Below the pieces are notes generated by a model. It worked only from the letters and a program-made list of their open reading frames with translations, did not search any database and had not been told where the DNA came from. The position numbers and the translations under genes were made by a program. Below are positions 462 to 32,526 of a DNA stretch of 64,000 bases, in pieces (the stretch's first letter is position 1; the number at the start of each line of letters is the position of its first letter). Source of the DNA: Desulfarculia bacterium (GTDB lineage: Bacteria; Desulfobacterota; Desulfarculia; Adiutricales; JAGVGV01); NCBI GenBank assembly GCA_963662445.1, contig OY759590.1:4232727-4296726 (forward strand), read 5' to 3'.

Positions 462-497
462 TATTTTGGCGAAATCATGAGGGAAAAGTCGGTCTCT

Positions 498-516
498 GCG
501 TACTATATGCTTACTA
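498..516 (+). promoter_or_regulatory. 19-mer gcgtactatatgcttacta, copy 2
   Basis: Exact repeat 55 bp downstream of copy 1 and 18 bp upstream of the int start codon. Confidence 0.45.
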
Positions 517-533
517 AAGCCTGAGGGGGCAAA

Positions 534-1730
534 ATGAAGATCACGAAGAAGGCGGTTGATGCGCTTGAATCACGTCCCGCGCAGTACGTTTCATGGGACG
601 ACGACCTTCACGGCTTCGGCGTTCGCGTAAACCCCTCGGGCTCCAAATCGTTTGTGCTTCAATATAGGAACGAGCACGGCCGGTCCCGGCGGTTGACCCT
701 GGGCCGATATGGCCCGTTAACCGTGGACGCCGCAAGGGGTTTGGCTATCGAGGCCCTAGCAGCGGCTACGGTTGGGCGAGACCCGGCACAGGAGAAGGCG
801 GACAAGCGCCGTGAGAACACCGTCGCGGAGCTTTGCGACAGATACATCACGGACCACGCCGAACTTCGAAAAAAAGCATCCTCGATTCGCAGTGATAAAT
901 GGCTCATTCGGGACTACATAAAGCCGGCGCTGGGGACACTGTCTATTGCGTCCGTCACGAGGGCCGACGTGGTCCGCCTGCACCATTCGCTCAGAGACCG
1001 GCCAACTGCGGCTAATCGGCTGTTGGCCTTACTGAGTAAAGTTTTCAATCTGGCCGAGGCGTGGGGGCTCCGGGCCGAGGGCACCAACCCGACCCGGCAC
1101 ATACAGAAAAACACCGAAAAACCGCGCCGGCGATATTTAACCGGTGAGGAACTGTCACGCCTGGGCGCAGCGCTGACGGAGGCCGAACAGAAAGGGACGG
1201 AGCATCCATCCGTTATCTTGTGCCTGCGCCTACTGTTGACGACGGGGTGCCGCCTGGGAGAGATAATGACCTTAAAATGGTCATATGTTGACTTCGCGTC
1301 CGGCGTGATAAATTTGCCCGACTCAAAGACCGGCGCAAAAACGATTCCGATACCGGGGCCGGCGGCCGATCTCCTGTTGAGCGCCGGCCGCCTTCAAGGA
1401 AATGATTACGTCTGTCACGGTCTCAGACCCGGTTCACATATTGTCGGGGTGGCAAAGCCTTGGTATCGAATTCGGAAAGCCGCAGGCATAGACGACGTTC
1501 GGTTGCATGACCTGAGACATGGGTATGCCAGTGTCGCGGCTGCTGAGGGCTTGGGCTTACCCTTAATTGGGGCGCTCCTGGGGCACACCCAGCCCGCGAC
1601 TACGGCGCGTTATAGCCATTTGGCAATGGATCCCCTGAAGGCGGCGGCGGAACTGATCGCGGGAAAGATTCAGGAACACATGAATAAAAAACCCGCGAAA
1701 AAAGTTGTCCCGTTTCCGGGAAGGAAGTAA
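534..1730 (+). CDS. int: Tyrosine recombinase / phage integrase, P4-like with an N-terminal arm-binding (DUF4102-type) domain
   Basis: N-terminus has YVSWDDDLHGFGVRVNPSGSKSFVLQYR. C-terminal catalytic motifs are TTGCRLGEI, HDLRHGYAS and ARYSH. Confidence 0.9.
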   Translation: MKITKKAVDALESRPAQYVSWDDDLHGFGVRVNPSGSKSFVLQYRNEHGRSRRLTLGRYGPLTVDAARGLAIEALAAATVGRDPAQEKADKRRENTVAELCDRYITDHAELRKKASSIRSDKWLIRDYIKPALGTLSIASVTRADVVRLHHSLRDRPTAANRLLALLSKVFNLAEAWGLRAEGTNPTRHIQKNTEKPRRRYLTGEELSRLGAALTEAEQKGTEHPSVILCLRLLLTTGCRLGEIMTLKWSYVDFASGVINLPDSKTGAKTIPIPGPAADLLLSAGRLQGNDYVCHGLRPGSHIVGVAKPWYRIRKAAGIDDVRLHDLRHGYASVAAAEGLGLPLIGALLGHTQPATTARYSHLAMDPLKAAAELIAGKIQEHMNKKPAKKVVPFPGRK

Positions 1731-1742
1731 CGAGGCCGGGAG

Positions 1743-2435
1743 ATGTATCAATTTTCTGATGCGGCGCTATCTCAAATAAAAGAACTCCTGAACGTCACGG
1801 ATTTTGACACCGCTTGGCTTGAAAGTATTCGATGGACCATTGATGATTTTGTATCAAAGAATCAAGATAGTCATGTGTCTAAAATGCTTCCAAGTGGCCG
1901 GATGGACCGACTAAAAGATGCACACAAGGCCGTCCGCAATGCCATAAAAAAACTGACCAAACTGGATGCCGAGCCGCTTTTTTGGGGCTACCCGCAACCC
2001 TTCGATAACCTCGAAAAGGGCATCCGGGAAACCTTCCCACTTATCGACAAGACCACGACGGAAAGCGGCGTCAATACTAAGTTTTCTGTCCCACATAGGG
2101 ATTCATTGTATGTCTGGCGGCGGTTTGCGGCAGGCGAAAGCGATTTACACACGATATATGAAGGGCTGGAGGCGGCTATCAAGACCTTGAAGGGCGAAAC
2201 CCGCCGAGGGCCAAGAGACAAGTATACCGGCGCGGACGAGTTTATCCAAAGTATGTTTCATGGCTATTCGGGTTTGGTCCCTTCTACTCATAAAGAACGA
2301 ACGAAGGAAAATTTTAAACGCTTTTTGTGCGCTTGTCTCGAGGATGCACAAGGGGCCGATTACGATGATGCCTTTTGGCCCGAGAAAATACAGTCCTGGA
2401 AAAGACATTTGGAATATCCCAAACAGGACAAATAA
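1743..2435 (+). CDS. Hypothetical protein (cargo between int and the Xis-like gene)
   Basis: 230-aa ORF starting 13 nt after int. No motif recognised. Locally lower GC. Confidence 0.55.
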   Translation: MYQFSDAALSQIKELLNVTDFDTAWLESIRWTIDDFVSKNQDSHVSKMLPSGRMDRLKDAHKAVRNAIKKLTKLDAEPLFWGYPQPFDNLEKGIRETFPLIDKTTTESGVNTKFSVPHRDSLYVWRRFAAGESDLHTIYEGLEAAIKTLKGETRRGPRDKYTGADEFIQSMFHGYSGLVPSTHKERTKENFKRFLCACLEDAQGADYDDAFWPEKIQSWKRHLEYPKQDK

Positions 2436-2602: not shown

Positions 2603-2809
2603 ATGGAACGCATTTTCGTTAAAACCCGTGACGCAGCCCGCTTCCTGGGACTGTCCCCCAAGACACTTGAAAAGTGGCGGGTTGTCGGGGGAGGGCCGAA
2701 ATTCCGGAAGCTGGGCGGGGCGGTTTTGTATGACCAACACGAGTTGACCGCTTGGGCGGACTCCCGTGTCCGGCTGTCGACTTCCGACCCCGGCCAGTCT
2801 CCGGAGTAG
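2603..2809 (+). CDS. AlpA/excisionase-family HTH DNA-binding protein
   Basis: KTRDAARFLGLSPKTLEKWRVVGGGPKFRKLGGAVLYDQHELTAW is the typical HTH_17/AlpA pattern. Confidence 0.7.
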   Translation: MERIFVKTRDAARFLGLSPKTLEKWRVVGGGPKFRKLGGAVLYDQHELTAWADSRVRLSTSDPGQSPE

Positions 2810-2812
2810 CCA

Positions 2813-5761
2813 ATGGCCGACCTGGAAAAAACAGTCCAAATCATCTTTGAGGGCTCCGACCGCGTCAGCGGCCTCATCAACGGCATGCAGTCTAAAATGT
2901 CCGGCATGGCGTCGAACGTCGCAGACATCACTGAACCCCTGGCTAATTGGCACGACGGTATTTTGAAAGTGGATGCGGCCCTGTCCGCCCTTGCCGTGGG
3001 CGGCATGGCGTATTCCATTTACAAGTTCGGCGAGTTCGAAGACGTCATGCTGGCCGTCAAGGGCATTATCCGGGCCAGTGATACGGACTACATCCGGCTG
3101 AACGAACTCGTCAAGGGGCTTGGCGCGACAACCAGATACACGGCGACGGAAGCCGCCGAGGGCTTGCGGTTCCTGGCCATGGCCGGGCTGGACGTGGAAG
3201 AGGCAATCGGCGCACTGCCGAATATGCTCAACCTCGCCCAAGCTGCCGCCATCAACCTGGGCGAAGCCGCCGACATTTCCACAAACATCATGACCGGCTA
3301 CGGCGCGTCGGTCGATGACCTGACCCGCATTAACGACGTTCTGACGGCCACCTTCACAAACAGCAATACCAACCTCCTGGAACTGGGGCAGGCGTTCAAA
3401 TACGCCGGACCAGTCGCCAAGGCCCTGGGTTTCGACATTGAGGAAGTGGCGGCCACGTTCGGCGTCCTGGCTAACGCCGGATATAAGGCCGATATGGCCG
3501 GGACCGCGCTCCGAAACATCATGGTTGCCCTGGTTAAACCGGCCGGGAACATGGGCAAGCTGTTTAATAAACTCGGCATTGACACGTCCGAGATGGGCGT
3601 CAACCTGGCCAGTTCGTCTAATGCGCTTCGGTCCCTGGGCGTGTCCGTCAAAGACGCCGACGGCAACATGAGGCCACTGACGGATATCCTTGCGCAGTTA
3701 CAGCGGGGGCTTGAGCGGATACCCGACAAGGCCGACCGAACCGCCGTCCTGATGGAAATCTTCGGCAAGCGCGGCGGTCCCCAAATGGCCGCATTGTTGG
3801 AGCAGGGTGTCACCGCCATTTCCGGCATGGAAAGCAAAATCCGCTCCCTTGGCGGCGTCACTGATGACATCGCCAAACAGATGGAATCGGGAATCGGCGG
3901 GACAATCAGGCTTATCCGTTCGTCTGTCGAGGCCGTGACCATCGAAATCGGCGAGCGCATAGCAGCCGGAGCGATTCCAGCCGGTCAAGGCATGGCGGAA
4001 CTTATCCGGGCCATAAACAGCGAAATCAGGGCTGGGTCTTTTGACGAGATATTCAACGCCATTGAATCGTTCGGCGTGGACCTGGAAGCCGTATTTATCG
4101 CCGTGGCCGCGAACCTGCCGACCGCACTGGACCGGGTCGATTTCTCCAGGTTTGTCGGCGCGATTCAGGCCGTGGTTGCCGAGACTGGCAACCTGTTCAA
4201 GGCATTCTTCGGCGAAATCGACCTGACCACGCCTGAGGGCCTGGCCGCTGCCATACAGAAAATAGTCAACGCCGGGACCAAGCTGGCCGAGGTGTCCGAG
4301 GGCATAATTGAGCACTGGGAACGCTGGTCGCGCTGGTTGGGTGAGATAGTCGAGCGCCTGGGCGAGATGGACAAAGAGACGGCCAACACGATTGGAAACA
4401 TGCTCGGCCTGGGGAAGGAACTGAATGTCGTCTCGCGGATCGCCGAGAATTTCAACACTGCCCTGGGCGGGCTGAACCGGCTTTTAACATTGACCCTCGT
4501 CCGGCAAACGTACGCATTCGTGTCGTCCATAAAACTGACAGGGACCGCCTTAACTTCACTGGCGACATCGGTATCCACAGCCATCGGTTCAGCGGCCGGT
4601 CAAGTTGGTTTACTCGGGCTTGCCGCCGTGGCTGGCTGGACCGCTGGAACACTGATAAATGACCATGTTCCCGCCGTCGGTAGGGCCGCTCAAGCGGTCA
4701 TTGGTTGGGCAGACGACCTGCTCGACTTCAGCGGCAAACAGGAACGGGCGCGGAAAGAGACGGAGATATTCGACCGTCTCATAAACACCCTGGCCGAAAC
4801 GACGGATGATTACACCTACGACCTGTCCAAACTCCGGGCCGAATTGCTCGGACTTGGTTATGACATCACCGACCTGCCAGATGCCAAAATCATCAAACTG
4901 GCCGCCGATGCCGACATCCTGAGTTTCGAGGATGCCCAGCAACTGATTCATGCCCGCGTCCCCAACAGCCGCGAGGTTGAAATCTACGTCAACTCGCAAC
5001 GGGCGGCCGCCGACCTGTCAACGTTCGGCGAGGACGCCGACGAAGCGGCCCGCGCCAGAACGCTGGCCCTGACCGTTGCCACAGACGGGCAGTCCGTGAC
5101 GGCCACAAACCGCGTCATTGACGACCTGGAAAACAGAACCGCCAATCCAAGCCCCTACGTTCTGACCATCAGGGGCGACGGGTCCATTGAAATCGTCCGT
5201 AATCAACTTGCCTCGTTGCCGTCCGACAAGACAGTCAAGGTCAAGACCGAATTGGACGAGCTCGAAACTAAGAGATTTGAGGCCCAGCTGTCCGTGGTTG
5301 ATGCCCTGACAAAGGGCTATTTCGAGACCATTCAAAGCCAAGTCGAATGGGAAGCGAAATTGGAAATTGCCGAGGTTGAGGCCAACGCGGCCAAAATCGA
5401 GGCAATTATGTCAGCACTGACGGCGGCCTTCTCGTCATCCGGCGAGATATTATCAACCGCCCTGGGCGCGTTCGCGGAAATGTCCGCCAGTAATCCCCTG
5501 TGGATCAGCATGCAGGAATTCATCGAGCGGGAGTTTGCCATCCGCGAGGAAACGCTTGAACTGACCCGCGAGACAGCGGCGGCGGAAATCGACCTCATGA
5601 GGGCGAGGCAGGCGGCCTATGAGCGCGGAGACGCACAGGTGCAGATAGACGGGACTGGATTACAGCCGCACCTTGAGGCGTTCATGTTCGAAATCCTGAG
5701 CGCTATTCAGGTTCGGGCCAATGCCGAGGGCGCTGACTTCCTGGTGGGGTTGGCCACATGA
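2813..5761 (+). CDS. Phage tail tape-measure-like protein (TP901-family core region) with a long C-terminal helical/coiled-coil part
   Basis: RYTATEAAEGLRFLAMAGLDVEEAIGALPNMLNLAQAAAINLGEAADISTNIMTGYG, then NLLELGQAFKYAGPVAKALGFDIEEVAATFGVLANAGYKADMAGTALRNIM. Confidence 0.75.
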   Translation: MADLEKTVQIIFEGSDRVSGLINGMQSKMSGMASNVADITEPLANWHDGILKVDAALSALAVGGMAYSIYKFGEFEDVMLAVKGIIRASDTDYIRLNELVKGLGATTRYTATEAAEGLRFLAMAGLDVEEAIGALPNMLNLAQAAAINLGEAADISTNIMTGYGASVDDLTRINDVLTATFTNSNTNLLELGQAFKYAGPVAKALGFDIEEVAATFGVLANAGYKADMAGTALRNIMVALVKPAGNMGKLFNKLGIDTSEMGVNLASSSNALRSLGVSVKDADGNMRPLTDILAQLQRGLERIPDKADRTAVLMEIFGKRGGPQMAALLEQGVTAISGMESKIRSLGGVTDDIAKQMESGIGGTIRLIRSSVEAVTIEIGERIAAGAIPAGQGMAELIRAINSEIRAGSFDEIFNAIESFGVDLEAVFIAVAANLPTALDRVDFSRFVGAIQAVVAETGNLFKAFFGEIDLTTPEGLAAAIQKIVNAGTKLAEVSEGIIEHWERWSRWLGEIVERLGEMDKETANTIGNMLGLGKELNVVSRIAENFNTALGGLNRLLTLTLVRQTYAFVSSIKLTGTALTSLATSVSTAIGSAAGQVGLLGLAAVAGWTAGTLINDHVPAVGRAAQAVIGWADDLLDFSGKQERARKETEIFDRLINTLAETTDDYTYDLSKLRAELLGLGYDITDLPDAKIIKLAADADILSFEDAQQLIHARVPNSREVEIYVNSQRAAADLSTFGEDADEAARARTLALTVATDGQSVTATNRVIDDLENRTANPSPYVLTIRGDGSIEIVRNQLASLPSDKTVKVKTELDELETKRFEAQLSVVDALTKGYFETIQSQVEWEAKLEIAEVEANAAKIEAIMSALTAAFSSSGEILSTALGAFAEMSASNPLWISMQEFIEREFAIREETLELTRETAAAEIDLMRARQAAYERGDAQVQIDGTGLQPHLEAFMFEILSAIQVRANAEGADFLVGLAT

Positions 5762-5931
5762 AAACCGCCGATACACACCCCCTTGTGGCCACGTTCGACG
5801 AGTCCGGAAGGTTTGTCTATCTGCGGCTCCTGGCCCGCAATGAGTCCGAAGAGACCAGGCTCCGACCCGTGGGCGAAAGGCTGTTGGCGCGACTGCTGGC
5901 CATGGACATCCAGCCCGTGGGTGAGGCATGA
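5758..5931 (+). CDS. Small hypothetical protein (57 aa, below the ORF-track cutoff)
   Basis: Its ATG overlaps the stop of 2813-5761 (ATGA) and its stop overlaps the ATG of 5928-6809 (ATGA). It reads MKTADTHPLVATFDESGRFVYLRLLARNESEETRLRPVGERLLARLLAMDIQPVGEA. Confidence 0.5.
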   Translation: MKTADTHPLVATFDESGRFVYLRLLARNESEETRLRPVGERLLARLLAMDIQPVGEA

Positions 5932-6809
5932 CAAGGGTAACCGGGGGGGCATTCATCGTCGCCAGACAGGTGTTCTCATCCGAAATCTGGCGCAAGCCGC
6001 CAATTTATCTGAAAGCCTGGACATGGGTCATTGGGCACGCGAACCACGCCCATATCGAGCGGGGGGGGCGAGTGTACCGGCGGGGCGAATTCACCACGAC
6101 GTACCAAGAGGTCATCAACGCCCTTGCCTACACCGAAAACCACAAAACCATAAAACCGACCTTGAAACAGGTTCGTCGAGTGCTGGCGTGGCTTTCCGGG
6201 CAGGGAATGATTACGGTAATTGGTCTAAAGTCAGCAAAATCAGGGCTTGGCCGAGCTTGGGCAGACCCTGGGGCAGAGACTGGGGCATACGTCGGGATAA
6301 GGATAACAGTCTGTAATTACGACATATACCAAAGTCTGGACACCTATACTGGGGCAGACCCTGGGGCAGAGGGCTTGGCCGAGCTTGGGCAATACAACAA
6401 GAATGATTTAACAAAAAAGACTAAGAAACCAGCCCCCGAACCCTCCACCGACCCACCATCTGCACCAGGCTTCGACAGGATTCCGGATGAAGCCGTCCGG
6501 GCTTCTTTGGAAAGAGTTTGTCGGGAACTGGTCAGCACACCCGGACCCGAGGGAAAGCCCCTTTTCGGACGAGCGTTTGAGTTCGTGAACCGCTCCTTGG
6601 GAGACGGGCTCCGGCCGGAAGCGGTCCTGAAGGCCCTGACCCAAATCCAAACCATTGGCCACATTCGGTCACCGTGGCCGTATGCAAAACAGGTGTCCGA
6701 GACTGAAAGCAAGAACATTTGCGAGCGTGAGGCCATTGCTCGCCACGAGGAACTCAAGAAAACCGACCCGCTCCAAGCTTTCCTGACGAGGGGGATGCGC
6801 CTTGTCTGA
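5928..6809 (+). CDS. Hypothetical protein, possible winged-helix replication/loader-type protein
   Basis: 293-aa ORF coupled on both sides (8-nt overlap with dnaB). Has a wHTH-like stretch TLKQVRRVLAWLSGQGMITV. Confidence 0.55.
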   Translation: MTRVTGGAFIVARQVFSSEIWRKPPIYLKAWTWVIGHANHAHIERGGRVYRRGEFTTTYQEVINALAYTENHKTIKPTLKQVRRVLAWLSGQGMITVIGLKSAKSGLGRAWADPGAETGAYVGIRITVCNYDIYQSLDTYTGADPGAEGLAELGQYNKNDLTKKTKKPAPEPSTDPPSAPGFDRIPDEAVRASLERVCRELVSTPGPEGKPLFGRAFEFVNRSLGDGLRPEAVLKALTQIQTIGHIRSPWPYAKQVSETESKNICEREAIARHEELKKTDPLQAFLTRGMRLV

Positions 6810-8154
6810 TTCATTGCGCTCCGTTCAAGCGGAACAGGCCATCCTGGGGGCTGTGCTCGCGGCCTGTGACCCAGCGGAGGCCATTGGCCGGGCCATTGAG
6901 GGCGGTCTCACACCTGGCGACTTTTACAAAAAGGCCCACGCGCACATTTACGAAGCCATGCGGGGTTTGTTTGACCGGGGCGAGGTCATAGACCTGGTAG
7001 TTGTTGTGGGAGCCCTGGAACGGGCTGGACAAGCTGAAAAGGCTGGCGGACCCGCCTACCTGTCTGAATTGGCCGACCGGGCCGGGACATCGGCGGGTAT
7101 CACCCATTATGCCGGACAGATTCGAGACGCGGCCTTGAGGCGGCGTCTGGTTGATGTAGGCAGACAGATTGCAGAGACCAGCGGCAACGGCCACCACGAA
7201 ACCGCCCATGATGCCCTTGAAGCCGCCGAGGGCGCAATCTTCGCCCTGCGCGACACCAGACACCAGAGCGATGCGGGCGGGACCGTAGGCGCGACCCTGG
7301 GCGCATCCTTGCGGGAAATTGAAAAGCGCATGACCTCGACCGGCCCGACAGGAACACCGACCGGCTTCACGGACCTGGATGACCTGACCGGCGGTCTACA
7401 GCCTGGGGACCTGGCCATTATCGCCGGGCGGCCTTCGATGGGCAAGACGGCCCTGGCCCTGAATATCGCCCTGGCTGCGGCGGCCCCCTGGGCCAGAGAA
7501 ACGGCCAAGGATTACCCGGCGGCCCCTGCGGCCTTCTTTTCCCTGGAAATGTCAACAGCACAACTCAATGAGCGGCTATTGTCGGCCGTCTCCGGGGCGA
7601 ACCTTCAGGCGATCCGAACAGGCCGAGGGCTTCGAGACTCGGACCTTCAGGCCCTGACTGTAGCGGCCTCCCGGCTCTCTGGTATTCCGCTTCACATTGA
7701 CGACCGGCCCGCCCTGACCGTGAACGAGATTCGGGCGACGTCCCGGCGGATTGCTTCACGTGGCGGCCTGGGTTTGGTCGTGGTGGACTATCTGCAATTG
7801 ATGCGCGGCGACGGTCAGAACCGCGAACAGGAGATCAGCGGGATATCCAGGGGGCTCAAGGCGCTGGCGAAAGAACTCCATGTTCCCGTGTTGGCCCTGT
7901 CGCAGTTGAACCGGGCGCTTGAATCCCGCAACGATAAGCGGCCGAACCTGTCCGACCTGAGGGAATCCGGGGCCATTGAACAGGACGCGGACATTATCGG
8001 GTTTGTCTACCGGCCTGAGGTTTATGGGGCGACGGCTGACAACGCGGGCCAAGCCGAACTGTTAATCCGAAAAAACAGGAATGGACCGACCCGCGACTTG
8101 TCTTTTCACTGGGTAGCGCACACAAACCAATTTCGAACGGCGGCGAGGTTATGA
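6802..8154 (+). CDS. dnaB: Replicative DNA helicase DnaB
   Basis: N-terminal AEQAILGAVL, Walker A GRPSMGKTALALN, then VVVDYLQLM and RESGAIEQDADI. Confidence 0.9.
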   Translation: MSDSLRSVQAEQAILGAVLAACDPAEAIGRAIEGGLTPGDFYKKAHAHIYEAMRGLFDRGEVIDLVVVVGALERAGQAEKAGGPAYLSELADRAGTSAGITHYAGQIRDAALRRRLVDVGRQIAETSGNGHHETAHDALEAAEGAIFALRDTRHQSDAGGTVGATLGASLREIEKRMTSTGPTGTPTGFTDLDDLTGGLQPGDLAIIAGRPSMGKTALALNIALAAAAPWARETAKDYPAAPAAFFSLEMSTAQLNERLLSAVSGANLQAIRTGRGLRDSDLQALTVAASRLSGIPLHIDDRPALTVNEIRATSRRIASRGGLGLVVVDYLQLMRGDGQNREQEISGISRGLKALAKELHVPVLALSQLNRALESRNDKRPNLSDLRESGAIEQDADIIGFVYRPEVYGATADNAGQAELLIRKNRNGPTRDLSFHWVAHTNQFRTAARL

Positions 8155-8407
8155 CCGGTGAAATTTCCACCACAAGGGATAGGGAGGCAGAGCGGCAACA
8201 CGGAACTATACCCCGACCGCAAAAACCCCGCACGGCGAGCCCTGAGCGCCTTGGCGGGGCGATAAATGGACGGGGTGAAGGGGCGAAAGGTGGACGGGTC
8301 CTTCCAGAAGGTTTCGATTTATACGGATAAGCCAAGCCCCGATATTCCGCCAGATACAAACGGCGGAAAATTAGTTGACGAAACTTTACAACACGAAAGG
8401 ATTTGAA

Positions 8408-8854
8408 ATGGAACTGGTCACACAAGCCGAGTTCGCCCGTCGGGCGGGCGTCAGTCGGCAGAGGGTCAACGCCCTCTTGAAGGACGGGGCTTTCGGGAAG
8501 GCCACGCGGCGCGTTAACGGGAGAACGTTGATTGACTTTGAACCCGGACTGAAGGCCCTCGAAGGGGCGCTGGACCCGGCTTTTATCAGTAAAATAGTCA
8601 GCAATGCCAAGCGGCCGCCGAAACCTCAAATTGTGCTCCCCCAATTCCCATGGCCGGAGCGTGTCCGCCTGGACGGCGAACTGTCCCCGAGGTCCACCCT
8701 CATATTTGGGATACTGATTGAGAAATACAACCTTCCTGACCTGGACCCAATAAAAGCTATTGAAATTTTAATGGATATGGCCCCTGCCCGGTTTCTGGAA
8801 GCCTTCCCCGAGGGCAGATTTGACGAGGATGGGAGGGCTTTAAGCTTGTCATAA
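8408..8854 (+). CDS. Hypothetical HTH protein
   Basis: Start moved from the track's TTG (8375) to the ATG at 8408, which is preceded by aaagga. Has VTQAEFARRAGVSRQRVNALLKDG (HTH). Confidence 0.55.
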   Translation: MELVTQAEFARRAGVSRQRVNALLKDGAFGKATRRVNGRTLIDFEPGLKALEGALDPAFISKIVSNAKRPPKPQIVLPQFPWPERVRLDGELSPRSTLIFGILIEKYNLPDLDPIKAIEILMDMAPARFLEAFPEGRFDEDGRALSLS

Positions 8855-8874
8855 CCAAGCGTCCGGGATATAAT
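8846..8874 (+). promoter_or_regulatory. Sigma70-like promoter TTGTCA-17-TATAAT
   Basis: ttgtca (8846-8851), 17-nt spacer, tataat (8869-8874). Shares ccgggatataatt with the promoter at 9211-9240. Confidence 0.4.
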
Positions 8875-9096
8875 TCATTTATTCAAGTTCAGTATGATGC
8901 GTGATTGTTTGCCGCAGGGACTCGCAGAGGCCCCTGCGGTTCTAACAGCAACTCTAACCGGGCAACGGCGGCGGGGTCTGTTATGGGGATAACTTCTTAC
9001 CGTCCAAACCCTAAAGAGAACAACGCATCTGAAGCCTAGGTGGGGGATGGGCTTATGCCCATCACCTCATCGAGGCGACAGAGACAACCGACAATT

Positions 9097-9114
9097 TGTT
9101 GCCAATTGGCAACA
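9097..9114. promoter_or_regulatory. Perfect 18-bp palindrome tgttgccaattggcaaca (candidate operator)
   Basis: Self-complementary 18-mer in the 540-bp non-coding gap between the two promoters. Confidence 0.4.
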
Positions 9115-9210
9115 TTTCGCAAAAACCCCAAACCGAATCCCAAACCCGCCCGCTTACCTCTCTCGAACCAGACAAATATCGCCGATTTTCAATACTATGT
9201 GTAAAAAAAC

Positions 9211-9240
9211 TTGCCTTTTTCAACTGAGCCGGGATATAAT
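9211..9240 (+). promoter_or_regulatory. Sigma70-like promoter TTGCCT-18-TATAAT
   Basis: ttgcct (9211-9216), 18-nt spacer, tataat (9235-9240), upstream of the 9399 gene. Confidence 0.4.
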
Positions 9241-9398
9241 TAACATGCTAAAACTTAATACCCGGCGAGGTCACCCGTAAGATGACCGATTGTTTGTACC
9301 GAAGAAATAAATTTCCCGAGACTGAGGTGTCCGTGAGGCCCTCGACGGTTGGTATTGGCCGTTAGCAAGTCTCGGGAATTGCATTTTGGAGGTATGTT

Positions 9399-9848
9399 AT
9401 GGCAAGCAACATTCATGACATTGACATCCGACGCTTCAACATCACACCAGAAAACAGCCTTGAAATCGAACTGGGGGCGGAGAACCTTGATTGTCACGAA
9501 AAGGGACTCGTGCGGCGACTCCAGAACAACACGCGTATGGCCTTGGGCGCGATAGACGCAATCAGGGCCATGCTGGTTTCTCCCGAGGATTCCGGGCCGT
9601 TTTATGACACCTACAAACATCTTGGACGGCTGATTATCAAGGACTATGAGTCCATTGACGAACTGATGAGCGGCCCCGCTGTATGGCTGGAGAAGGTGCG
9701 AGAGGCCATGCACGAGGAAATCGACCGGGACTTTCAGAAGATTATCCAGATAGCCGGGCAGTTCTCCAACGAAGCGGCGGGGGGCTGTCCTTCCGGGGAA
9801 TTCGTCACCCCCGATTCCGAAGCGCCGGAGGTGACTCATGTTTCGTGA
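9399..9848 (+). CDS. Hypothetical protein
   Basis: 149-aa ORF with GGAGG 7 nt upstream of the ATG. Preferred over the antisense ORF 9255-9866. Confidence 0.55.
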   Translation: MASNIHDIDIRRFNITPENSLEIELGAENLDCHEKGLVRRLQNNTRMALGAIDAIRAMLVSPEDSGPFYDTYKHLGRLIIKDYESIDELMSGPAVWLEKVREAMHEEIDRDFQKIIQIAGQFSNEAAGGCPSGEFVTPDSEAPEVTHVS

Positions 9849-10215
9849 CCCCTGGACCAACGGCAATCATCTGATCGTGGCCCCCGTTGACGCGTTTGTT
9901 TTTCTACTGGAACCCTTGAAGTGCCTCATCGGACTGCGCGACAATGACGCCGGAGATGAACCTGAACACCATCTCGGGACAGTTACGGCGGTCCTTGTCC
10001 GGAGGCTGGAGAAGGAACTCATGGAACTGGCCACGGGACTGATAGAAAACGCCCCCGTTGAAATCTGCCTGCGGTCCGAGGGGGTTTTATATTCCGTCCG
10101 GGGCGTCCGGCCGAAGTCCCCTGCTTCCGAAACGCCTGAGACCCGTGGGTCTCAAATCCCCCAAACAGGGTCCCCGGAATTCCCCGCGCCTAAAGCAGCG
10201 GAGGTGGCCCCATGA
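9838..10215 (+). CDS. Hypothetical protein
   Basis: 125-aa ORF overlapping the upstream gene by 11 nt and the downstream gene by 4 nt. Confidence 0.5.
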   Translation: MFRDPWTNGNHLIVAPVDAFVFLLEPLKCLIGLRDNDAGDEPEHHLGTVTAVLVRRLEKELMELATGLIENAPVEICLRSEGVLYSVRGVRPKSPASETPETRGSQIPQTGSPEFPAPKAAEVAP

Positions 10216-10505
10216 CTGAGACCGCGAAAAAACTCGAAGAACGGGCCTTCCCGGCCCGGAAAGCCTGGAACTGGACCGACCCGGAGGCACCAAACCCCGA
10301 TTACTGTTACCTCTACAACCCGTATAAGAGCGGGGCGAATTGTCTGGAGGGGTTGGTTCAATGCCGGAAGTTTCTTGCCATAATACGGAACATCGACCCG
10401 GAAGGCTACGCGGCTGACGATGAGTTGATGGAAGGTGTCCAGTTCCTTCTGGACCACGTCCGGGATACCTTGGAGCATATCGGCAAGGCGATTCGGTCTC
10501 ATTAG
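10212..10505 (+). CDS. Hypothetical protein
   Basis: 97-aa ORF, 4-nt overlap with the previous gene; last gene of the element. Confidence 0.5.
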   Translation: MTETAKKLEERAFPARKAWNWTDPEAPNPDYCYLYNPYKSGANCLEGLVQCRKFLAIIRNIDPEGYAADDELMEGVQFLLDHVRDTLEHIGKAIRSH

Positions 10506-10615
10506 TCGCCACAGGGGGGCCGGGCCAGTCCCGGCCCCGATATGAGTGTTACCGTGGTAACACTTTCGCCCCCCCCTCCTCGCCCCTTGAAACCAGCCCG
10601 AAAATTTTTCCAATT

Positions 10616-10634
10616 GCGTACTATATGCTTACTA
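10616..10634 (+). promoter_or_regulatory. 19-mer gcgtactatatgcttacta, copy 3 (right end of the element)
   Basis: Exact copy of 443-461. The flanking ccaatt is also shared with copy 1. Confidence 0.45.
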
Positions 10635-10640
10635 AAATCA

Positions 10641-10680
10641 AAAAGGGGTTAGGCCATATCGGCTTAACCCCTTGAAATTA
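10641..10680 (-). terminator. Rho-independent terminator (minus-strand sense) 3' of the right tRNA-Thr fragment
   Basis: aaggggttaggcc/ggcttaacccctt stem. The minus-strand read is followed by TTTTGATTTT. Confidence 0.55.
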
Positions 10681-10728
10681 CTGGAGCCGGCGATGGGATT
10701 TGAACCCGCGACCTGCTGATTACGAATC
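10665..10728. repeat. 64-bp direct repeat, right copy (attR-like)
   Basis: Identical to 262-325. Confidence 0.85.
10682..10728 (-). tRNA. tRNA-Thr(CGU)-like 3' half, second copy; 5' half absent here too
   Basis: Same 47 nt as 279-325. The adjacent ggaacctcttgg plus block A' cannot form the acceptor, D-arm or anticodon stem. Confidence 0.6.
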
Positions 10729-10740
10729 GGAACCTCTTGG

Positions 10741-10865
10741 TTTCACAACCTCCTCATATTGTTTTAACTATTTGATTTAATGCATTTAATTAATTCTCTA
10801 CTTTTTCATGTTTTGGCCGTTTTTTGCCAATTTTGTAAAAAAGTCTCACACAACTCTCACACAGA
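10741..10865. repeat. Block A', second copy of the 125-bp block A
   Basis: Aligns with 110-234 apart from one ~15-nt variable patch and a g/a difference. Confidence 0.85.
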
Positions 10866-10879
10866 AAAGGGGGGAGAAC

Positions 10880-11623
10880 ATGGCTTTGACGGGGCTTGCT
10901 CAAGGGTGGGCCAACGGATCTTTTCCAAGGTCTTGGATGGCCATAGTTTGTATTTCCATTGCCGTCGTCCTTGTCCACAATATGGGAGCAACTCCTATGC
11001 TTGGCTCAGCCGATGAACCCAGGACGACCATCAGACAGGCCTTTGCTCTGAACAACCTTTTACCATTTGAAATAGGGCTCCCGAGTCTCCCTTGGCCGGG
11101 TGGTATTGAGGAGCCTCAATGCCCCACCAAACGAAGCAGCGCGCCTCTTCCGTCTATCAGCCAAAGGGTTACTCTGCCACCGGAGTTTCAATGCACCTAT
11201 GAAACTAGATTTAATGACCTTGATCTACTGATTAAGGCAGCCACCGATGCATATCAACTCGACCCTGAATTGATCAGAGCCGTTATCCGAGTCGAGTCCA
11301 ATTTCGATCCCGATGCCGTGTCGCCTGCCGGCGCCATGGGGCTGATGCAGCTAATGCCGCAAACCGCCAGGGAGGTGGGTGTCAAGAATCCTTTTGATCT
11401 CACGGAAAACGTCTTTGGCGGAGCCCGATACCTGAGGCTGATGATGGACCGCTACTCCGGCGATCTCGAGAAAGCTCTGGCAGCCTACAACTGGGGGCCG
11501 GCGAACTTGGATCGGTCGAGGGGTTGGTTGCCTGAGGAGACGAAGCGGTATGTGAACATGGTTCAGGCTTTTCACCGCTTTTATTCCGAAAAGGAGGCTT
11601 CAATCCCCGCGGACGAGCAATGA
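10880..11623 (+). CDS. Lytic transglycosylase (SLT domain) with N-terminal TM/signal segment
   Basis: Start moved to the ATG at 10880 (gggggag RBS). Has ESNFDPDAVSPAGAMGLMQLMPQTA and AAYNWGPANL. Confidence 0.8.
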   Translation: MALTGLAQGWANGSFPRSWMAIVCISIAVVLVHNMGATPMLGSADEPRTTIRQAFALNNLLPFEIGLPSLPWPGGIEEPQCPTKRSSAPLPSISQRVTLPPEFQCTYETRFNDLDLLIKAATDAYQLDPELIRAVIRVESNFDPDAVSPAGAMGLMQLMPQTAREVGVKNPFDLTENVFGGARYLRLMMDRYSGDLEKALAAYNWGPANLDRSRGWLPEETKRYVNMVQAFHRFYSEKEASIPADEQ

Positions 11624-11804
11624 GCCCGAGGTTGTCCTGCGCTGCTATCCCCAGATTAGAACCAAAATTATTTGCACAAAACGACTCTATACCGGCATGC
11701 GTTTGAATCAGTTGGCGAATTTAATCTTAGAGTCTGGCCGCTGGGCTCCGGAATACGCATCGTGGTGCCAGCCTTCACAATTCTTTACTCCAATAGGTTT
11801 GCCT

Positions 11805-14800
11805 CTACTCCTCTTCGAACCCAAAAGAGTCGAAGCGCAAGGTGCGGCAGTTTTCGGTGACATCGCGGATGGTCTTCTCGGTGGCCCCGTCCGGCATTTC
11901 GGCCCGGATTTCCAGGGTCACCTCGACGTTGGCCCCGATATACTTCGACAGGTGTTGGATGACCTCGTCGGCAATTCGGCTGGCGTCACGTCCGACCCGG
12001 AGTGAATCGAGTTGCACCGATCCATGGAAACGCCGATACGTGGGGGCGGGTGGGGGCGGTGTGCCTGTGTCCGCTCCACGCGTTGTTTCCGCCCCGGCCG
12101 CTTGACCCTGTTCCCCGGTCTGTTCGGTTTCCGCAACCGTCGCCGAACCGTTTCCGGCCTTTGCTTTCGCCGCTTCAACATCCCGGCGCTGCTGTTCGGC
12201 TGCCACGTCGGGCTTCACTACAATCGAGCCACCCTCGCTCTGAACAGCGGCAGAGCCGCCTCCCACGAGGCCTAAATAGCGGCCGTCGGCGTCCTTGGAC
12301 TGCGCGTAGGCGAACGTCTCAGACTGCCAGGTCAGCAGCGTGATCCCTTCCCGGATGGCGGCGATCAGTACGTCCGAGTCGCGAAGACGGGGAAGGTACA
12401 GGTACGTCGCGAAATCTTCGACAAGCTGCTTCACCAGCACGTCATTCCCGCGCCAGAGGGGTACCCGGTCCAGTTCAAGGCGTAGCCGAACTCCGCCCAT
12501 CTGGACGAGGAGCATCTCCTCACTTTTGAGCTTTTTGGAAGCGCGAAGCGCCAGCGAGTCTGACCCTTGCAAGCGAGTTTCCGTCCACTCGGGCGATCCC
12601 TTGGGATCTGGCTGGTTCGGAACGAGCAGCCACTGATAGGCCTCGGGAATGCGGACGTTCGCCGTATCGTCGGCGTTTTTGCGTTTCGTGTCTGCCTGCT
12701 TGGATTGGAACGGATCGAGATTGAGCTGCTCCCGCTCGTCCCAGATGGACTTCCAGGACATGAATTGCCGGATGGCGGTCTGAAGGTCTTTGAGCCGACT
12801 CGCATCGCTCGCCAGGAACACCAAGGTGTTCTTGTACGACCGGGGGCTGCTACCACGACTGTCCAAGATAGCCTGCGCCTCCTTCCGCGCGGTGCTGTCT
12901 GCCTGGCCTTTGCTGTGCGGATGCTCCGGACCGAGGACCACCAGCCGCGCCTCGTGCTCGTCCGGGATATCGCTGCTGCTCAGACAGGCATGCACGCGGT
13001 GGAAATCGCCACGGCTGCGCGCCTCATCCCTCAGGCGGCGTACGATCTCGTCCATGACATCGTGTTCGTGGAGCTGGTTCGCACGGTCCTCCGCAAGACG
13101 TGTGACCGTGGGCTGGGTCGAGTACCAATAGCGGCTGCCGTCCACATACAAATAGGTCGCCCGATCCGTAAGTCGGCGGATGGCGTCGCCGAAGGTAGCC
13201 ACGGTTTCGCCGGGCTGAACGCAACCCAACTTCACCTGGCGGTCGTCGATACCCCGGTTGGCGGCCCGTTGGGTCGGGGCCGATCCGACATAGATGGTGC
13301 GCGCCACGCGGCGGCAAGCGGAGTAGCGGCCCAAGTTCGGCGCATCCCGGTCGAGCCTGAGCGGCAGGGAATGCTCCCCGTCCACATCCTTGGCGATGAC
13401 AGGGGTCCATTGGTCGTCAAGGTAGCGGGTTAACTCGAACTGCACCGCGGAGTCGTCGATGGGGATGGTGGCGGGCATGATCAGCAGGTTGCCGTCCTGT
13501 CTTTCCCATAGGGAATGGATCACCGCCGCCATCAGGCGCAACACGCCGCGCGTGCGTTGAAATTTGTCGAGCGTGGACCAGTCGTTGTAGAGCCGGTCGA
13601 AGAGTTCCGGGTGGATCGGGTAGGCCAGTTTGATGCGACGTTCGTACTCGGCCTCTCGACACTCGGATGGAAATTCGCTGTGTTGCGTTCCGTACATCTC
13701 CACAAAGGCTCGCGCCACGGCGTCGCGCGCCACGAAGGCCTGCTTCTCATGCAGTGGCTCAAATAGCCGACGGCGCACGATCTCGAACCCCTCGTCCGGG
13801 CTGGCCGGGCGCCAGCTCGATTCCACGCGGCCGATGGCGTTCTTGAGTCGGGACAAGGCACGTTGGCCCCATTCACCGCCGATCTCGTTATCGGATGCTG
13901 GAATGCTGACCACCAGCAAGGTGTTCTTGGCCGCCTTGGCCGCCTCGCTCAGTGCCTGGGCGAAGGTGAACTGGGTGTCGAAGGTGCCGGCGGGAAGCAC
14001 GCTGCCTTCGTGAAGTTGCCGCGCGTAGGCTACCCACTCGTCGATCAGAACAAGGCAGGGCGAGAACTTGTTGAACAGCTCCTTCATCTTGTCGCCGGGG
14101 TTGGTGGCCTTCTCGTCGTCGGCGCGGATCATCTCATAACCGGTTTTGCCTCCCAGTTGCCAAGCGATTTCGCCCCAGATCGTGCGGATGACGGTCCCGT
14201 CGTCCTTCGTGCTCGGGTTGCCGGGCGACACCTTGGTGCCGACTACAATGGCGCGATTAACCGTCGATGCCACCTCACATCCGGCTTCTTTCAGGACCTG
14301 CTCAGTACCGGGAAGTTCGGTCGTTGGTGTGCCGGAAAAGAGATGAAAAAGCGCCAGCATGCTGTGCGTTTTCCCGCCGCCGAAGTTCGTCTGCAACTCG
14401 ACCACCGGGTCGCCGCCCTGCCCGCCGATGCGGCGTACGCCGTTGCTGAGGAGCTTCTGCAGTCCCTCGGTGATGAAGGTGCGCCGGAAGAACTCGGTGG
14501 GGTCCTGGTACTCGGATGCCGCCTCGCCCAGGTACACCTGCCACAGATCGGCCGCGAACTCGGCCTGCTGGTATTTGCCGCTGGCCACGTCCCGGTGCGG
14601 GGTGACGACTTCGCGCCAGGGCTTGAGGCCGCTCTGCGGGTTGCCCTCGGTGGGGGCCACGGCGTGCTTGCGCATCTCGCCTCGGCGCTGCTCATCGAAT
14701 CGCACGCGCAACAGCGCCATCTTCTGCTCTTCCAGTTCCTTTGCCTCGGGGGCCGAGATGGCGGTAAGCAGACGGCCGATGCTATCCAGCGCCCGATAGG

Positions 14801-15131
14801 CGTCGTCGCTGTTGAAGGGCGTCTGGTGCGCCCAGCGGTTGCGCACGTCCCGTAATTCGCTGACCAACGAGCGTTCGGCGAATCCCAGCGTATTGCGGAA
14901 AACGGCATTCCATTGATCCCACATGATGGTCAGTAGGTTGTGGGTGTCCCAGTTGAGCTCCCCCGTCCTGGCCGACTTCACGCCGCCGCGATCCTCCCGG
15001 AGCGTCTGCGCCACAATCTCCTGCCATTGTTCTCCATGGACGGCCCGGAGTTCCCGTTCCACAAAGGGGCGCAACCCCCTATTGAGCAGTTCGAGCGCTT
15101 CTCCAACCCTACTGTGATTACTTTTCGCCAT
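11805..15131 (-). CDS. Swt1-like HEPN domain fused to a DUF499-type (BrxC/PglY-like) ATPase
   Basis: N-terminal LRDVRNRWAHQ (HEPN Rx4H). Walker A-like NFGGGKTHSML and Walker B LVLIDEWVAY. 1108 aa; last gene of the operon. Confidence 0.8.
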   Translation of the reverse strand: MAKSNHSRVGEALELLNRGLRPFVERELRAVHGEQWQEIVAQTLREDRGGVKSARTGELNWDTHNLLTIMWDQWNAVFRNTLGFAERSLVSELRDVRNRWAHQTPFNSDDAYRALDSIGRLLTAISAPEAKELEEQKMALLRVRFDEQRRGEMRKHAVAPTEGNPQSGLKPWREVVTPHRDVASGKYQQAEFAADLWQVYLGEAASEYQDPTEFFRRTFITEGLQKLLSNGVRRIGGQGGDPVVELQTNFGGGKTHSMLALFHLFSGTPTTELPGTEQVLKEAGCEVASTVNRAIVVGTKVSPGNPSTKDDGTVIRTIWGEIAWQLGGKTGYEMIRADDEKATNPGDKMKELFNKFSPCLVLIDEWVAYARQLHEGSVLPAGTFDTQFTFAQALSEAAKAAKNTLLVVSIPASDNEIGGEWGQRALSRLKNAIGRVESSWRPASPDEGFEIVRRRLFEPLHEKQAFVARDAVARAFVEMYGTQHSEFPSECREAEYERRIKLAYPIHPELFDRLYNDWSTLDKFQRTRGVLRLMAAVIHSLWERQDGNLLIMPATIPIDDSAVQFELTRYLDDQWTPVIAKDVDGEHSLPLRLDRDAPNLGRYSACRRVARTIYVGSAPTQRAANRGIDDRQVKLGCVQPGETVATFGDAIRRLTDRATYLYVDGSRYWYSTQPTVTRLAEDRANQLHEHDVMDEIVRRLRDEARSRGDFHRVHACLSSSDIPDEHEARLVVLGPEHPHSKGQADSTARKEAQAILDSRGSSPRSYKNTLVFLASDASRLKDLQTAIRQFMSWKSIWDEREQLNLDPFQSKQADTKRKNADDTANVRIPEAYQWLLVPNQPDPKGSPEWTETRLQGSDSLALRASKKLKSEEMLLVQMGGVRLRLELDRVPLWRGNDVLVKQLVEDFATYLYLPRLRDSDVLIAAIREGITLLTWQSETFAYAQSKDADGRYLGLVGGGSAAVQSEGGSIVVKPDVAAEQQRRDVEAAKAKAGNGSATVAETEQTGEQGQAAGAETTRGADTGTPPPPAPTYRRFHGSVQLDSLRVGRDASRIADEVIQHLSKYIGANVEVTLEIRAEMPDGATEKTIRDVTENCRTLRFDSFGFEEE

Positions 15132-18009: not shown

Positions 18010-18659
18010 TGGTCCAGTATCTTCCTTGACAGTGACGTGAATTGTCGCAATCTGTTTTGCGGATCGGGATTCAAGTAGTATATGATCGCCCATTCGATCA
18101 AAGCAGGTTCGGGATTGTCCCCAAGCGTGTCGATTAACTGCCGAGCATGGGTGCATCGCCTTCCGGTCAGGCGGGCGCATTTCAGACCCAGGTAACCGAT
18201 AGTATAATCTGCTTTCAGAGCGTCTTCTCCATCAATCCCATCCGCCGGTTGGACCGTGCCATTTGGCAGGTACTGAAACAGGCGCGCGGTGTCAGGATCA
18301 TGAGGCGGGCAAAACAGCGTTGGGTTATATCGATAACCGGGATTGTGATGCCTGTCGTCCTTGAACCGTCCGCAATGCTCAACAGCGCCGCCGTTACACG
18401 ATGATGCTAGGTTGGCGTAGGCGTAGATCGGGCCGGACGGCAGGCCATGACCTGGATTTCGCGGTGCCATGTGCTCGATGTGGCTGTCGTCGGCCGTGAT
18501 TTCGACTTCACAGTAACAACAGACATAGTGCTGTTCCTCGCGCAGGGAGTCGCCCACCTGCTGATGGCAGGTCGTGCTCATAAAAGCACCCCAGTCTTGC
18601 GCCTGCGGTTGTTGAGCAAGGCAGGCCGGCGGATTTGGATTGCGGGTGATCGTCCTCAT
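18006..18659 (-). CDS. ptuB: HNH endonuclease-like protein, Septu PtuB-like (TIGR02646-like)
   Basis: CCYCEVEITADDSHIEHMAPRN HNH motif, ~217 aa, directly downstream of and overlapping an AAA_15-type ATPase. Confidence 0.65.
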   Translation of the reverse strand: MRTITRNPNPPACLAQQPQAQDWGAFMSTTCHQQVGDSLREEQHYVCCYCEVEITADDSHIEHMAPRNPGHGLPSGPIYAYANLASSCNGGAVEHCGRFKDDRHHNPGYRYNPTLFCPPHDPDTARLFQYLPNGTVQPADGIDGEDALKADYTIGYLGLKCARLTGRRCTHARQLIDTLGDNPEPALIEWAIIYYLNPDPQNRLRQFTSLSRKILDQ

Positions 18660-20069: not shown

Positions 20070-20705
20070 TCATGCCAATAGTCTCCTGATCCAGTTCACG
20101 AAGGCGGCTGCCTGTGGATGGTTGGGGTCGAGATACTTTTTCTTGAAAGTCTCGCCCATCCTCGTGCCCGGCTCCTCCTGCCAAGCCAGCCAGGTGTGAA
20201 CATGGGCCTTGACTAGATAGGTTTCCTTGAATCGCCTGTCCGCCTTGGGAATGCTGTTCACGTCGGCCTGGGCCTTCGGCCACAGCGTGTCACCCTCGGC
20301 AATCAGCTTGCCGACAAAATCCTCCAGCGCCCCAGCGCTCTTGTTGTCAGGCATCACCCAGATGCCGATTTTTTTGCCGTCGGTCGTTTCGATGACAGTA
20401 CCCCCAGTACTCGGTGCTGCTGGAACCGAGCGGCATCCGTGCTCGTCCAGTATTCTCGTCACGCGCGCCCATTGGCTGGCAACGTTTGTGTCGGCATCGA
20501 GGATTATTCCGAGGCTGCCGAGATCGGTCGCTTTCAATTCCTCGCTCAACGTGCCGATCAGGTTATCTATGCCTTCTTTGACCTTGTAGTCATTCTTCCC
20601 GAATTGGTCGCATAGAGGTTTACCTTCATGCTTGTGATTGAACAAGAGATTCCTCACGACATGCATATCATCAGGGCCTTCGAATAGGAGCCGGTTGACC
20701 ATCAT
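20070..20705 (-). CDS. Small Toprim-like protein (RloB/AbiLii, DUF4276/DUF3226 or AriB-like class), partner of the upstream ATPase
   Basis: LLFEGPDDMHVV (hydrophobic-EG-acidic) and GIILDADTN (DxD). 211 aa; ATGA overlap with the upstream gene. Confidence 0.45.
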   Translation of the reverse strand: MMVNRLLFEGPDDMHVVRNLLFNHKHEGKPLCDQFGKNDYKVKEGIDNLIGTLSEELKATDLGSLGIILDADTNVASQWARVTRILDEHGCRSVPAAPSTGGTVIETTDGKKIGIWVMPDNKSAGALEDFVGKLIAEGDTLWPKAQADVNSIPKADRRFKETYLVKAHVHTWLAWQEEPGTRMGETFKKKYLDPNHPQAAAFVNWIRRLLA

Positions 20706-32169: not shown

Positions 32170-32526
32170 TATACTTCACTTTTGTTGGATTCAGAATGTT
32201 CATAATCTTGCGGAGAAGTGTTCGAAGCGCCACTTCTTGCCCATTCGTCGAATTCCATCTGGTTGAATTTTCAAAGCCGACCAATCTTGCGCCCCGGCAT
32301 TTGCCGTTTGCTTGGGTCCCATCCTTCGAAAACAACACACATTTTGGCAAACTTAAGACAATCAGGGCGATAATACCCCAGAGAGATGCAAATTGTCAAT
32401 CGATTATTCCTTTTATTTTGCATGGTTATCTCATATCAATCAAATATTCTCCTTAAATAGACAGAAATTCCATCTTCGATGCCGCCGCATAATATGCGTC
32501 TGTCCCAACGGCAAAGTGAGGTATTC

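Follow-up and report, generated by a model that had tools for sequence, protein, structure and literature searches.

The window, meaning the whole 64-kb stretch of contig OY759590.1 analyzed here, holds near its left end a 10.4-kb integrative element in which a gene for a phage tail tape measure protein (TMP) lies at 2813-5761. Two copies of an exact 64-nt direct repeat, spaced 10,403 bp apart, delimit the element, and all of its genes are on the plus strand. The TMP gene is the second gene of an operon that opens with a gene for an AlpA-like protein and runs on through orf57, a putative replication initiator (orf293), and a DnaB-type helicase. Judged from the sequence and its relatives, the likeliest account is that an orphan TMP gene was captured as a single open reading frame (ORF) by a small, integrative, self-replicating, satellite-like element. 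The features of the element are listed below, with E values in parentheses (HTH, helix-turn-helix; att, attachment site).

262-325: attL, an exact 64-nt direct repeat, 100% identical to its partner at 10665-10728
441-461 and 496-516, plus strand: arm-type repeats (C/T)TGCGTACTATATGCTTACTA, just upstream of int
534-1730, plus strand: int, tyrosine integrase of 398 aa (Phage_integrase, 8e-18; Arm-DNA-bind_3, 1.8e-17; phrog_1, 2e-67)
1743-2435, plus strand: orf230, no family match, GC content 47%
2603-2809, plus strand: AlpA/Xis-like HTH_17 protein of 68 aa (PF12728, 4.7e-08; phrog_66 excisionase/regulator, 7e-08)
2813-5761, plus strand: TMP gene, an intact ORF of 982 aa
5758-5931, plus strand: orf57, short and conserved (identity, 68% with the 55-aa ORF of the sister element L005/L006 and 54% with that of the related element L155)
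5928-6809, plus strand: orf293, putative replication initiator/helicase loader (phrog_2514 DnaD-like loader, 1.4e-10)
6802-8154, plus strand: DnaB-type replicative helicase of 450 aa (DnaB_C, 4e-95; DnaB, 9e-24)
8375-8854, plus strand: HTH protein of 159 aa (HTH_3, 1.5e-4; phrog_57, 8e-06, aa 11-63 only)
9399-10505, plus strand: orf149, orf125, and orf97, no family match; the sister element has conserved counterparts of orf149 and orf97
9838-10215, plus strand: orf125 of this trio, absent from the sister element, like the TMP
10614-10634, plus strand: third arm-type repeat, near the right end of the element
10665-10728: attR, the second copy of the 64-nt repeat at 262-325

The tape measure gene and its product

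The core of the TMP matched Pfam family PF10145 (PhageMin_Tail) at aa 98-318 (E = 6.2e-52; 176.8 bits against a cutoff of 33.2) and NCBIfam TIGR01760 (tape_meas_TP901) at aa 61-403 (E = 2.6e-65; 220.8 bits against a cutoff of 28.8). More than 20 PHROG TMP families were also matched, the best of them across aa 19-640 (E = 4.8e-90), as was chain w of the solved tail structure PDB 9g8s, which is labeled "Tail tape measure" (E = 2.7e-26). The TP901-type core that a preliminary description of this DNA had read in the 982-aa protein is borne out by all four kinds of profile match. A homolog search of 5.8 billion proteins returned 646 matches, of which the best 120 are listed. Among the matches listed, the closest were P0002 and P0004, with 45 to 46% identity over 100% of the length; with P0006 included, identities to the window TMP ranged from 42 to 46%, again at 100% length coverage.

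The 29 TMP sequences aligned collinearly over their whole length, first residues (MADL...) and last included. Conservation in the clade is concentrated in the N-terminal ~540 aa and the C-terminal ~180 aa, with a variable stretch between them, and the stretch of the window TMP that lies C-terminal of its core aligns with phage TMPs up to the last residues. At clade-conserved columns (at least 80% conserved in the other members), the window TMP matched 88%, within the 71 to 98% found for phage-borne members. It is the longest of the aligned set (982 aa; others, 875 to 973 aa), and its 2.9-kb ORF contains no frameshift and no stop. The GC content at third codon positions (GC3) is 0.72, compared with 0.71 and 0.74 in its operon neighbors. 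Because the alignment is collinear end to end, because 88% of the conserved columns are kept, and because its length is near that of the others, the predicted product is a genuine, full-length TP901-type TMP, intact and unexceptional within its clade rather than a fragment or a diverged derivative.

These observations bear on the suggestion, also made in the preliminary description, that a TMP-like domain had been co-opted for something unrelated. Membrane or DNA-transfer functions of the element would be examples. TMPs have membrane-active segments, and the gene lies outside any tail module, both of which would suit such a role. However, the window TMP diverges from the clade consensus no more than phage-borne members do, it has neither gained nor lost a domain, and both termini are kept. 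Co-option for a non-virion role found no support in these comparisons and appears very unlikely.

Within the operon, the gene lies between the Xis-like gene and the replication module, as had been described, although the gap that separates it from the end of the AlpA-like gene (2809) is 3 nt rather than 4. A GGAG motif stands 7 nt ahead of its ATG, and its stop overlaps the start of orf57 in the sequence ATGA. All five genes from alpA to dnaB (alpA, TMP, orf57, orf293, and dnaB) are 3 nt apart or overlap. Given the 3-nt gap, the GGAG motif, and the overlapping starts and stops, the TMP would be made as part of the alpA-replication operon. The AlpA-like protein, to go by its family name, would be a regulator of excision or activation.

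Tail modules, related elements, and the capture of one gene

Searches of Pfam, PHROGs, and NCBIfam with 9 of the 10 other element ORFs gave no virion-type match except an HTH-only TerS-like similarity, while orf57, which was scanned against NCBIfam and PADLOC only, had no match. PADLOC likewise matched neither the TMP nor the element ORFs that lack homology. We also built hidden Markov models (HMMs) of the virion proteins encoded with TMPs of this clade, namely the chaperone (27 sequences), the tube (24 sequences), and the U-like, Z, FII, M-like, and distal-tail proteins. At E <= 10, none of these models gave a match in the 64-kb window, whichever frame was read. The gene is flanked by alpA and orf57 instead of tail genes, with no tail assembly chaperone (TAC), tube, or M-like match in the 64 kb, and no trace of a phage M-like gene was found at the start of orf57, where it was specifically sought. 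No residual structural, lysis, or packaging gene or pseudogene was found beside the TMP in any frame, and the rest of the window contains a defense island and caspase-like genes, not a prophage. By these family scans and clade HMMs, the TMP is the only virion-type gene detectable in the element and in the window, and the earlier claim that the 10.4-kb element holds no other virion gene stands.

The relatives of this TMP are found in a very different setting. The contigs of P0002, P0003, P0004, P0005, and P0006 are phage structural modules, which between them encode a portal, an S49 protease, a lambda-E-type capsid protein, FII, Z, tube, and chaperone proteins, followed by the TMP and distal tail genes. 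Altogether, 28 distinct loci with close TMP relatives emerged when genome, metagenome, and IMG/VR collections were scanned. A chaperone homolog ends 91 to 412 nt upstream of the TMP in 26 of them, and a tube gene was also seen in 22; the two exceptions are a locus without upstream DNA and a more distant partial match. None of the 28 loci paired the TMP with an integrase, AlpA, initiator, or DnaB resembling those of the window element, and in none did the TMP lie within an island. Scanning the genome contig collection with the single TMP sequence gave no relative; with the TMP alignment, the same collection gave one full-length relative, in a Desulfobacteraceae metagenome-assembled genome, also located behind a chaperone gene. 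The window TMP shares its family and full-length architecture with TP901/lambda-type phage TMPs (lambda gpH, with gpG/gpGT), yet in TP901/lambda-type modules the TMP is flanked by chaperone, tube, and distal-tail genes, whereas in the window it is flanked by alpA and a replication module. On present sequence comparisons, it is the only member of its clade found outside a tail module.

The replication genes of the element lead to other loci. In the database, orf293 has only two other relatives, one of which is 88% identical and occurs both in assembly GCA_053527175.1 (L005) and in a Logan contig (L006). The gene order in L005/L006 is HTH, HTH_17/AlpA-like, 55-aa ORF, 293-aa initiator, and DnaB, with int and tRNA-Leu farther along, and the AlpA-like gene abuts the 55-aa ORF with no TMP between them. 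Nucleotide identity between the window and this sister element is 82 to 85% and starts inside orf57, at 5858. The PGK and TIM proteins of the two host genomes share their 90% clusters, which marks these genomes as close relatives. A DnaB search added elements with the same core at 56 to 76% DnaB identity (L151, L155, and L152-L154). L151 is a second element of the sister genome GCA_053527175.1 (contig JAIVRR010000045.1, 5143-11673); both L151 and L155 lack a TMP, their alpA directly adjoining the small ORF. The contigs of L152-L154 begin inside the initiator gene, and the slot that would hold the TMP lies off the contig; tblastn found no TMP on L152, and L153 and L154 were not searched. The C-terminal domain of orf293 is conserved in L151, L152, and L155, and its N-terminal domain is related at 25 to 31% identity to initiators of ~40-kb IMG/VR phages. 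The DnaB of the window element shares 76 to 78% identity with its counterparts in two sister elements and ~50% with chromosomal DnaB of Thermodesulfobacteriota. Together with the Desulfobacteraceae relative of the TMP, these nearest chromosomal DnaB homologs make a host in Thermodesulfobacteriota probable. No phage record was matched by a megablast search with the whole element.

These loci outline a family of ~6- to 10-kb elements in this lineage with the order int ... alpA, small ORF, rep, and DnaB, two members of which occur in one genome. Across the family, the C-terminal domain of the initiator and DnaB are conserved, while the N-terminal DNA-binding domain of the initiator, the integrase, and the target site vary.

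Because the relatives of the TMP sit in tail modules, while in three related elements alpA abuts the small ORF without a TMP, the comparison points to the capture of a single ORF and not to a prophage remnant. The TMP is, as far as these alignments allow it to be read, accessory cargo: exactly one ORF inserted into the conserved operon of a non-phage element family. A decayed prophage, of whose tail module the TMP would be the last piece, was nevertheless considered. The preliminary description had held that homologs always located in complete tail modules would imply such a remnant, and the close homologs are indeed all in full tail modules (26 of 28 behind a chaperone, none in islands). The premise has held up, but the conclusion does not follow from it, because the backbone belongs to a non-phage family that is TMP-free at three loci and the TMP is a clean single-ORF insertion. 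Flanking fragments of structural or lysis genes are missing in all frames, the TMP fits exactly between alpA and orf57, two genes that neighbor each other in the sister elements, and the att repeats, arm sites, and integrase are intact. With no residual virion genes present and a backbone that recurs without the TMP in three other loci, we rejected the prophage remnant as extremely improbable.

The element backbone and its surroundings

On the minus strand, the 64-nt repeat contains the 3' portion of a tRNA-like gene (anticodon stem through CCA) and the 17 nt that follow it; neither copy belongs to an intact tRNA according to ARAGORN and Rfam. The 21-nt arm-type motif has three matches in the 64 kb, against 0 expected by chance, and fits arm-type sites for the integrase with its Arm-DNA-bind_3 domain. 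Within orf293 (6242-6391) is an iteron-type origin, in which an AT-rich spacer is surrounded by CTGGGGCAGA, present about five times, and GGGCTTGGCCGAGCTTGGGCA, present twice. The iterons fall between the variable N-terminal and the conserved C-terminal domains of orf293, much as the origin of lambda is placed inside its gene O. With its att repeat, three arm-type sites, integrase, iteron origin, and DnaB, the element is by its predicted parts a complete mobile unit.

The remaining genes were characterized to different degrees. The GC content of orf230 (47%) is low relative to the 0.55 to 0.62 of most element genes, for which reason this gene is probably separate cargo. It had no match in Pfam, PHROGs, NCBIfam, or PADLOC and no significant hit in a PDB sequence search, and its single-sequence AlphaFold2 (AF2) model was too poor for a fold search (predicted local distance difference test score [pLDDT], 40). 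The AF2 model of the 159-aa HTH protein (pLDDT, 57) is confident at aa 10-65 only, and this protein is most likely a regulator. Its identification as TerS was dropped, as the phrog_57 similarity is confined to the HTH and the model is poor beyond aa 65. PDB sequence searches with orf125, orf149, and orf97 gave nothing significant; orf125 had a single distant match, to a 1589-aa protein in which six repeated stretches match aa 70-116 of orf125. Between the HTH gene and orf149 lies a 544-nt noncoding stretch (8855-9398) with two promoter-like sites that share CCGGGATATAATT (8862-8874 and 9228-9240); it is possible that this stretch is a regulatory region or a small RNA locus of the element.

Outside both att copies there is a 126-nt repeat (109-234 and 10740-10865; 96% identical). 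Each copy abuts truncated 3' halves of tRNAs, one type at 49-100 and another at 262-325 and 10665-10728, and each truncated half is followed by a hairpin, AAGGGG...CCCCTT, with differing loops (4-42, 235-272, and 10641-10675). The whole 64 kb yielded no intact tRNA. A relic att site, a leftover of other islands, may have been the target into which the element integrated.

Directly to the right of the element is a defense island (11805-32169), all of it on the minus strand, in which several systems are nested between the genes of an Hma system, as follows.

11805-15131, minus strand: HmaC, Hma system
15160-18180, minus strand: HmaB, Hma system
18006-18659, minus strand: PtuB of Septu, nested between Hma genes
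18656-20056, minus strand: PtuA of Septu, nested between Hma genes
20070-20705, minus strand: PDC-M38 B, nested between Hma genes
20702-21889, minus strand: PDC-M38 A, nested between Hma genes
21856-24441, minus strand: PDC-S06, nested between Hma genes
24404-28663, minus strand: TmtA-like protein of 1419 aa, nested between Hma genes
28660-32169, minus strand: HmaA, Hma system

Farther to the right, a Replic_Relax protein (32479-33465) and a Cdc6/Orc1-like AAA+ protein with a Cdc6_C winged helix (37952-39238) are encoded. The Cdc6-like protein has a paralog at least 90% identical elsewhere in the same chromosome, and the two genes may mark another mobile element. The interval 41577-61862 contains, on the minus strand, a cluster of caspase-like (Peptidase_C14) genes, two of which carry fused FGE-sulfatase domains (49785-51965 and 59691-61862). 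The same interval also encodes proteins that have DUF4384, OmpA-TPR, and DUF3160 domains.

Possible roles of the captured tape measure

PICI, P4-like, and minimalist (PICMI-type) satellites are small int-alpA-replication elements without virion genes, which the backbone of the window element resembles. Compared with them, it has no detected terS, cos, capsid-redirection, psu/sid/delta, or primase-type genes and carries an O-like initiator with DnaB. Satellite behavior is suggested by an integrase and att sites on an element of <20 kb, an AlpA-type regulator gene, and a replication module of its own (DnaB, orf293, and iterons). We give a probability of roughly 0.4 to the captured TMP substituting for the TMP of a helper phage, by analogy with the PLE satellites of Vibrio. 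Upon activation of the element, the TMP would be made together with the replication proteins. It would then enter the tail assembly of a lambda-like siphophage from its own TMP clade, either co-resident or infecting, using the chaperone, tube, and tip proteins of that phage and displacing the phage's own TMP. The resulting hybrid tails (~147 nm at 1.5 Å per residue) would carry element DNA, and possible gains include escape from TMP-directed exclusion or defense, or a handicap to the helper. Both conserved ends of the TMP would fit docking to the chaperone and tip complex of a related phage; since the window TMP keeps these ends, a helper of the same clade could use it without an element-borne chaperone.

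The precedent is recent. The PLE satellites of Vibrio cholerae encode a TMP together with a TAC and the BhuB hub and produce chimeric tails (Nature 2026, PMC12987554). The PLE TMP replaces that of the helper phage ICP1 in PLE virions, making tails ~10 nm shorter, and its deletion lowers transduction by 96 to 99.9%; putative tmp genes are also reported from PLE-like elements and cf-PICIs (PMC12987554). EPIP satellites of Mycolicibacterium are reported to encode a TMP and to show altered tail lengths (preprint, PMC12822802). The view in the preliminary description that a satellite-encoded tape measure would be unusual is therefore dated. In the literature we found, satellite-encoded TMPs first appear in 2025-2026, and the concept itself is already known.

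Like the window element, PLE, which is integrative and phage-parasitic, has its own TMP without a full tail module. In PLE, the chaperone and baseplate hub are co-encoded and tmp is conserved across variants, whereas the window TMP is encoded by itself and is missing from the related elements. Tails are contractile in the PLE helper ICP1, in contrast to the lambda-like siphophages of the window TMP clade. In addition, the PLE TMP was found by HHpred only, at 20% identity to that of its helper, whereas the window TMP is a clear PF10145 member. EPIP resembles the window element in being small and having a TMP, but it has a small terminase subunit, head-tail adaptor, stopper, scaffold, and serine integrase, while the window element lacks these and has a tyrosine integrase. 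A further orphan occurs on pBAslCI14 (NC_014333.1, L156), a 14.2-kb Bacillus cereus plasmid in which a TMP (10068-12317) is, as in the window element, the only annotated virion-type gene. However, this is a Bacillota plasmid, its TMP is 29% identical over 43% of the query, and the gene lies beside a recombinase among mostly hypothetical genes.

Several results weigh against the substitution of a helper's TMP. No helper is known, the nearest phage TMP among the matches listed being only 46% identical, and within the best 120 of the 646 matches the 4.83-Mb host contig contributes only this one TMP. The cognate TAC was not found in any frame with the HMM of 27 clade members; a baseplate hub or distal-tail gene was not found in the element with HMMs, Pfam, or PHROGs; and family searches detected no terS, cos, or capsid-redirection genes there. 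A search of IMG/VR with the initiator alignment gave distant phage initiators only and no relative of the element. The TMP occurs in one of four comparable elements (the window but not L005/L006, L151, or L155) and so is not part of the family core, and as a single sequence it carries no sign of expression or selection. Five element ORFs have no detectable homologs, and the AF2 models of two proteins tried were poor (pLDDT, 40 and 57), so a partner or chaperone unrelated in sequence may be among those five. It may also be that a TMP alone, without its own chaperone or hub, is enough for a minimal satellite to retool a siphophage tail.

Some of the same results would suit a TMP that does nothing. 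Illegitimate or short-homology recombination would have brought it in when the element and a phage were replicating in one cell, and it would be intact only because the capture was recent. Its presence in one of four elements and the lack of partner genes agree with such an idle passenger. Moreover, all five element proteins looked up, the TMP included, are singletons at 90% identity, so there is no population evidence for selection. On the other hand, the 2.9-kb ORF is free of frameshifts and stops and keeps its clade-conserved columns, the insertion preserves the start, the Shine-Dalgarno sequence, and the ATGA overlap with the next gene, and GC3 (0.72) matches that of the operon neighbors. 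A large useless gene at the head of a replication operon should also be costly, and we regard this explanation as somewhat unlikely.

The location beside a dense defense island (Hma, Septu, PDC-M38, PDC-S06, and TmtA-like genes) raises the possibility that the TMP is an anti-phage decoy. Made in a cell infected by a related phage, the island TMP would enter and poison tail assembly; it could, for instance, seed tip complexes whose completion is beyond the phage chaperone or terminator. Particles would be tailless or dead, and the host population would be protected with or without transfer of the element. The conserved ends would let the TMP engage phage partners while its sequence is ~54% divergent, no cognate chaperone was found, and mobile elements are already known to block tail assembly, as in Tai systems (PMC11364771) and PLE11 Rta. 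Yet no known defense uses a structural protein as a decoy, PADLOC gave no match, and a place within the alpA-replication operon suggests expression upon activation of the element instead of constitutive expression. A decoy function is, in our judgment, doubtful. If it were true, this would be an anti-phage mechanism built on a counterfeit virion part and not on a sensor or enzyme.

To return to substitution in a helper tail, it was not until 2026 that satellites were shown to manipulate tails rather than capsids, and then only in one Vibrio system with a contractile-tailed helper. What is new here is the TMP-only form on an int-alpA-O-like-DnaB element, the siphophage clade and the host, and the comparative evidence for one-gene capture. 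The TMP-free sister elements provide a natural before-and-after pair that points to acquisition as a single ORF, and the pair offers a clean test of whether a foreign tape measure aids the spread of the element, harms the phage, or does nothing. If substitution is correct, the locus would extend tail piracy to lambda-like siphophages and to an anaerobic lineage, probably Thermodesulfobacteriota, and would represent its simplest form, a tape measure gene without chaperone or hub.

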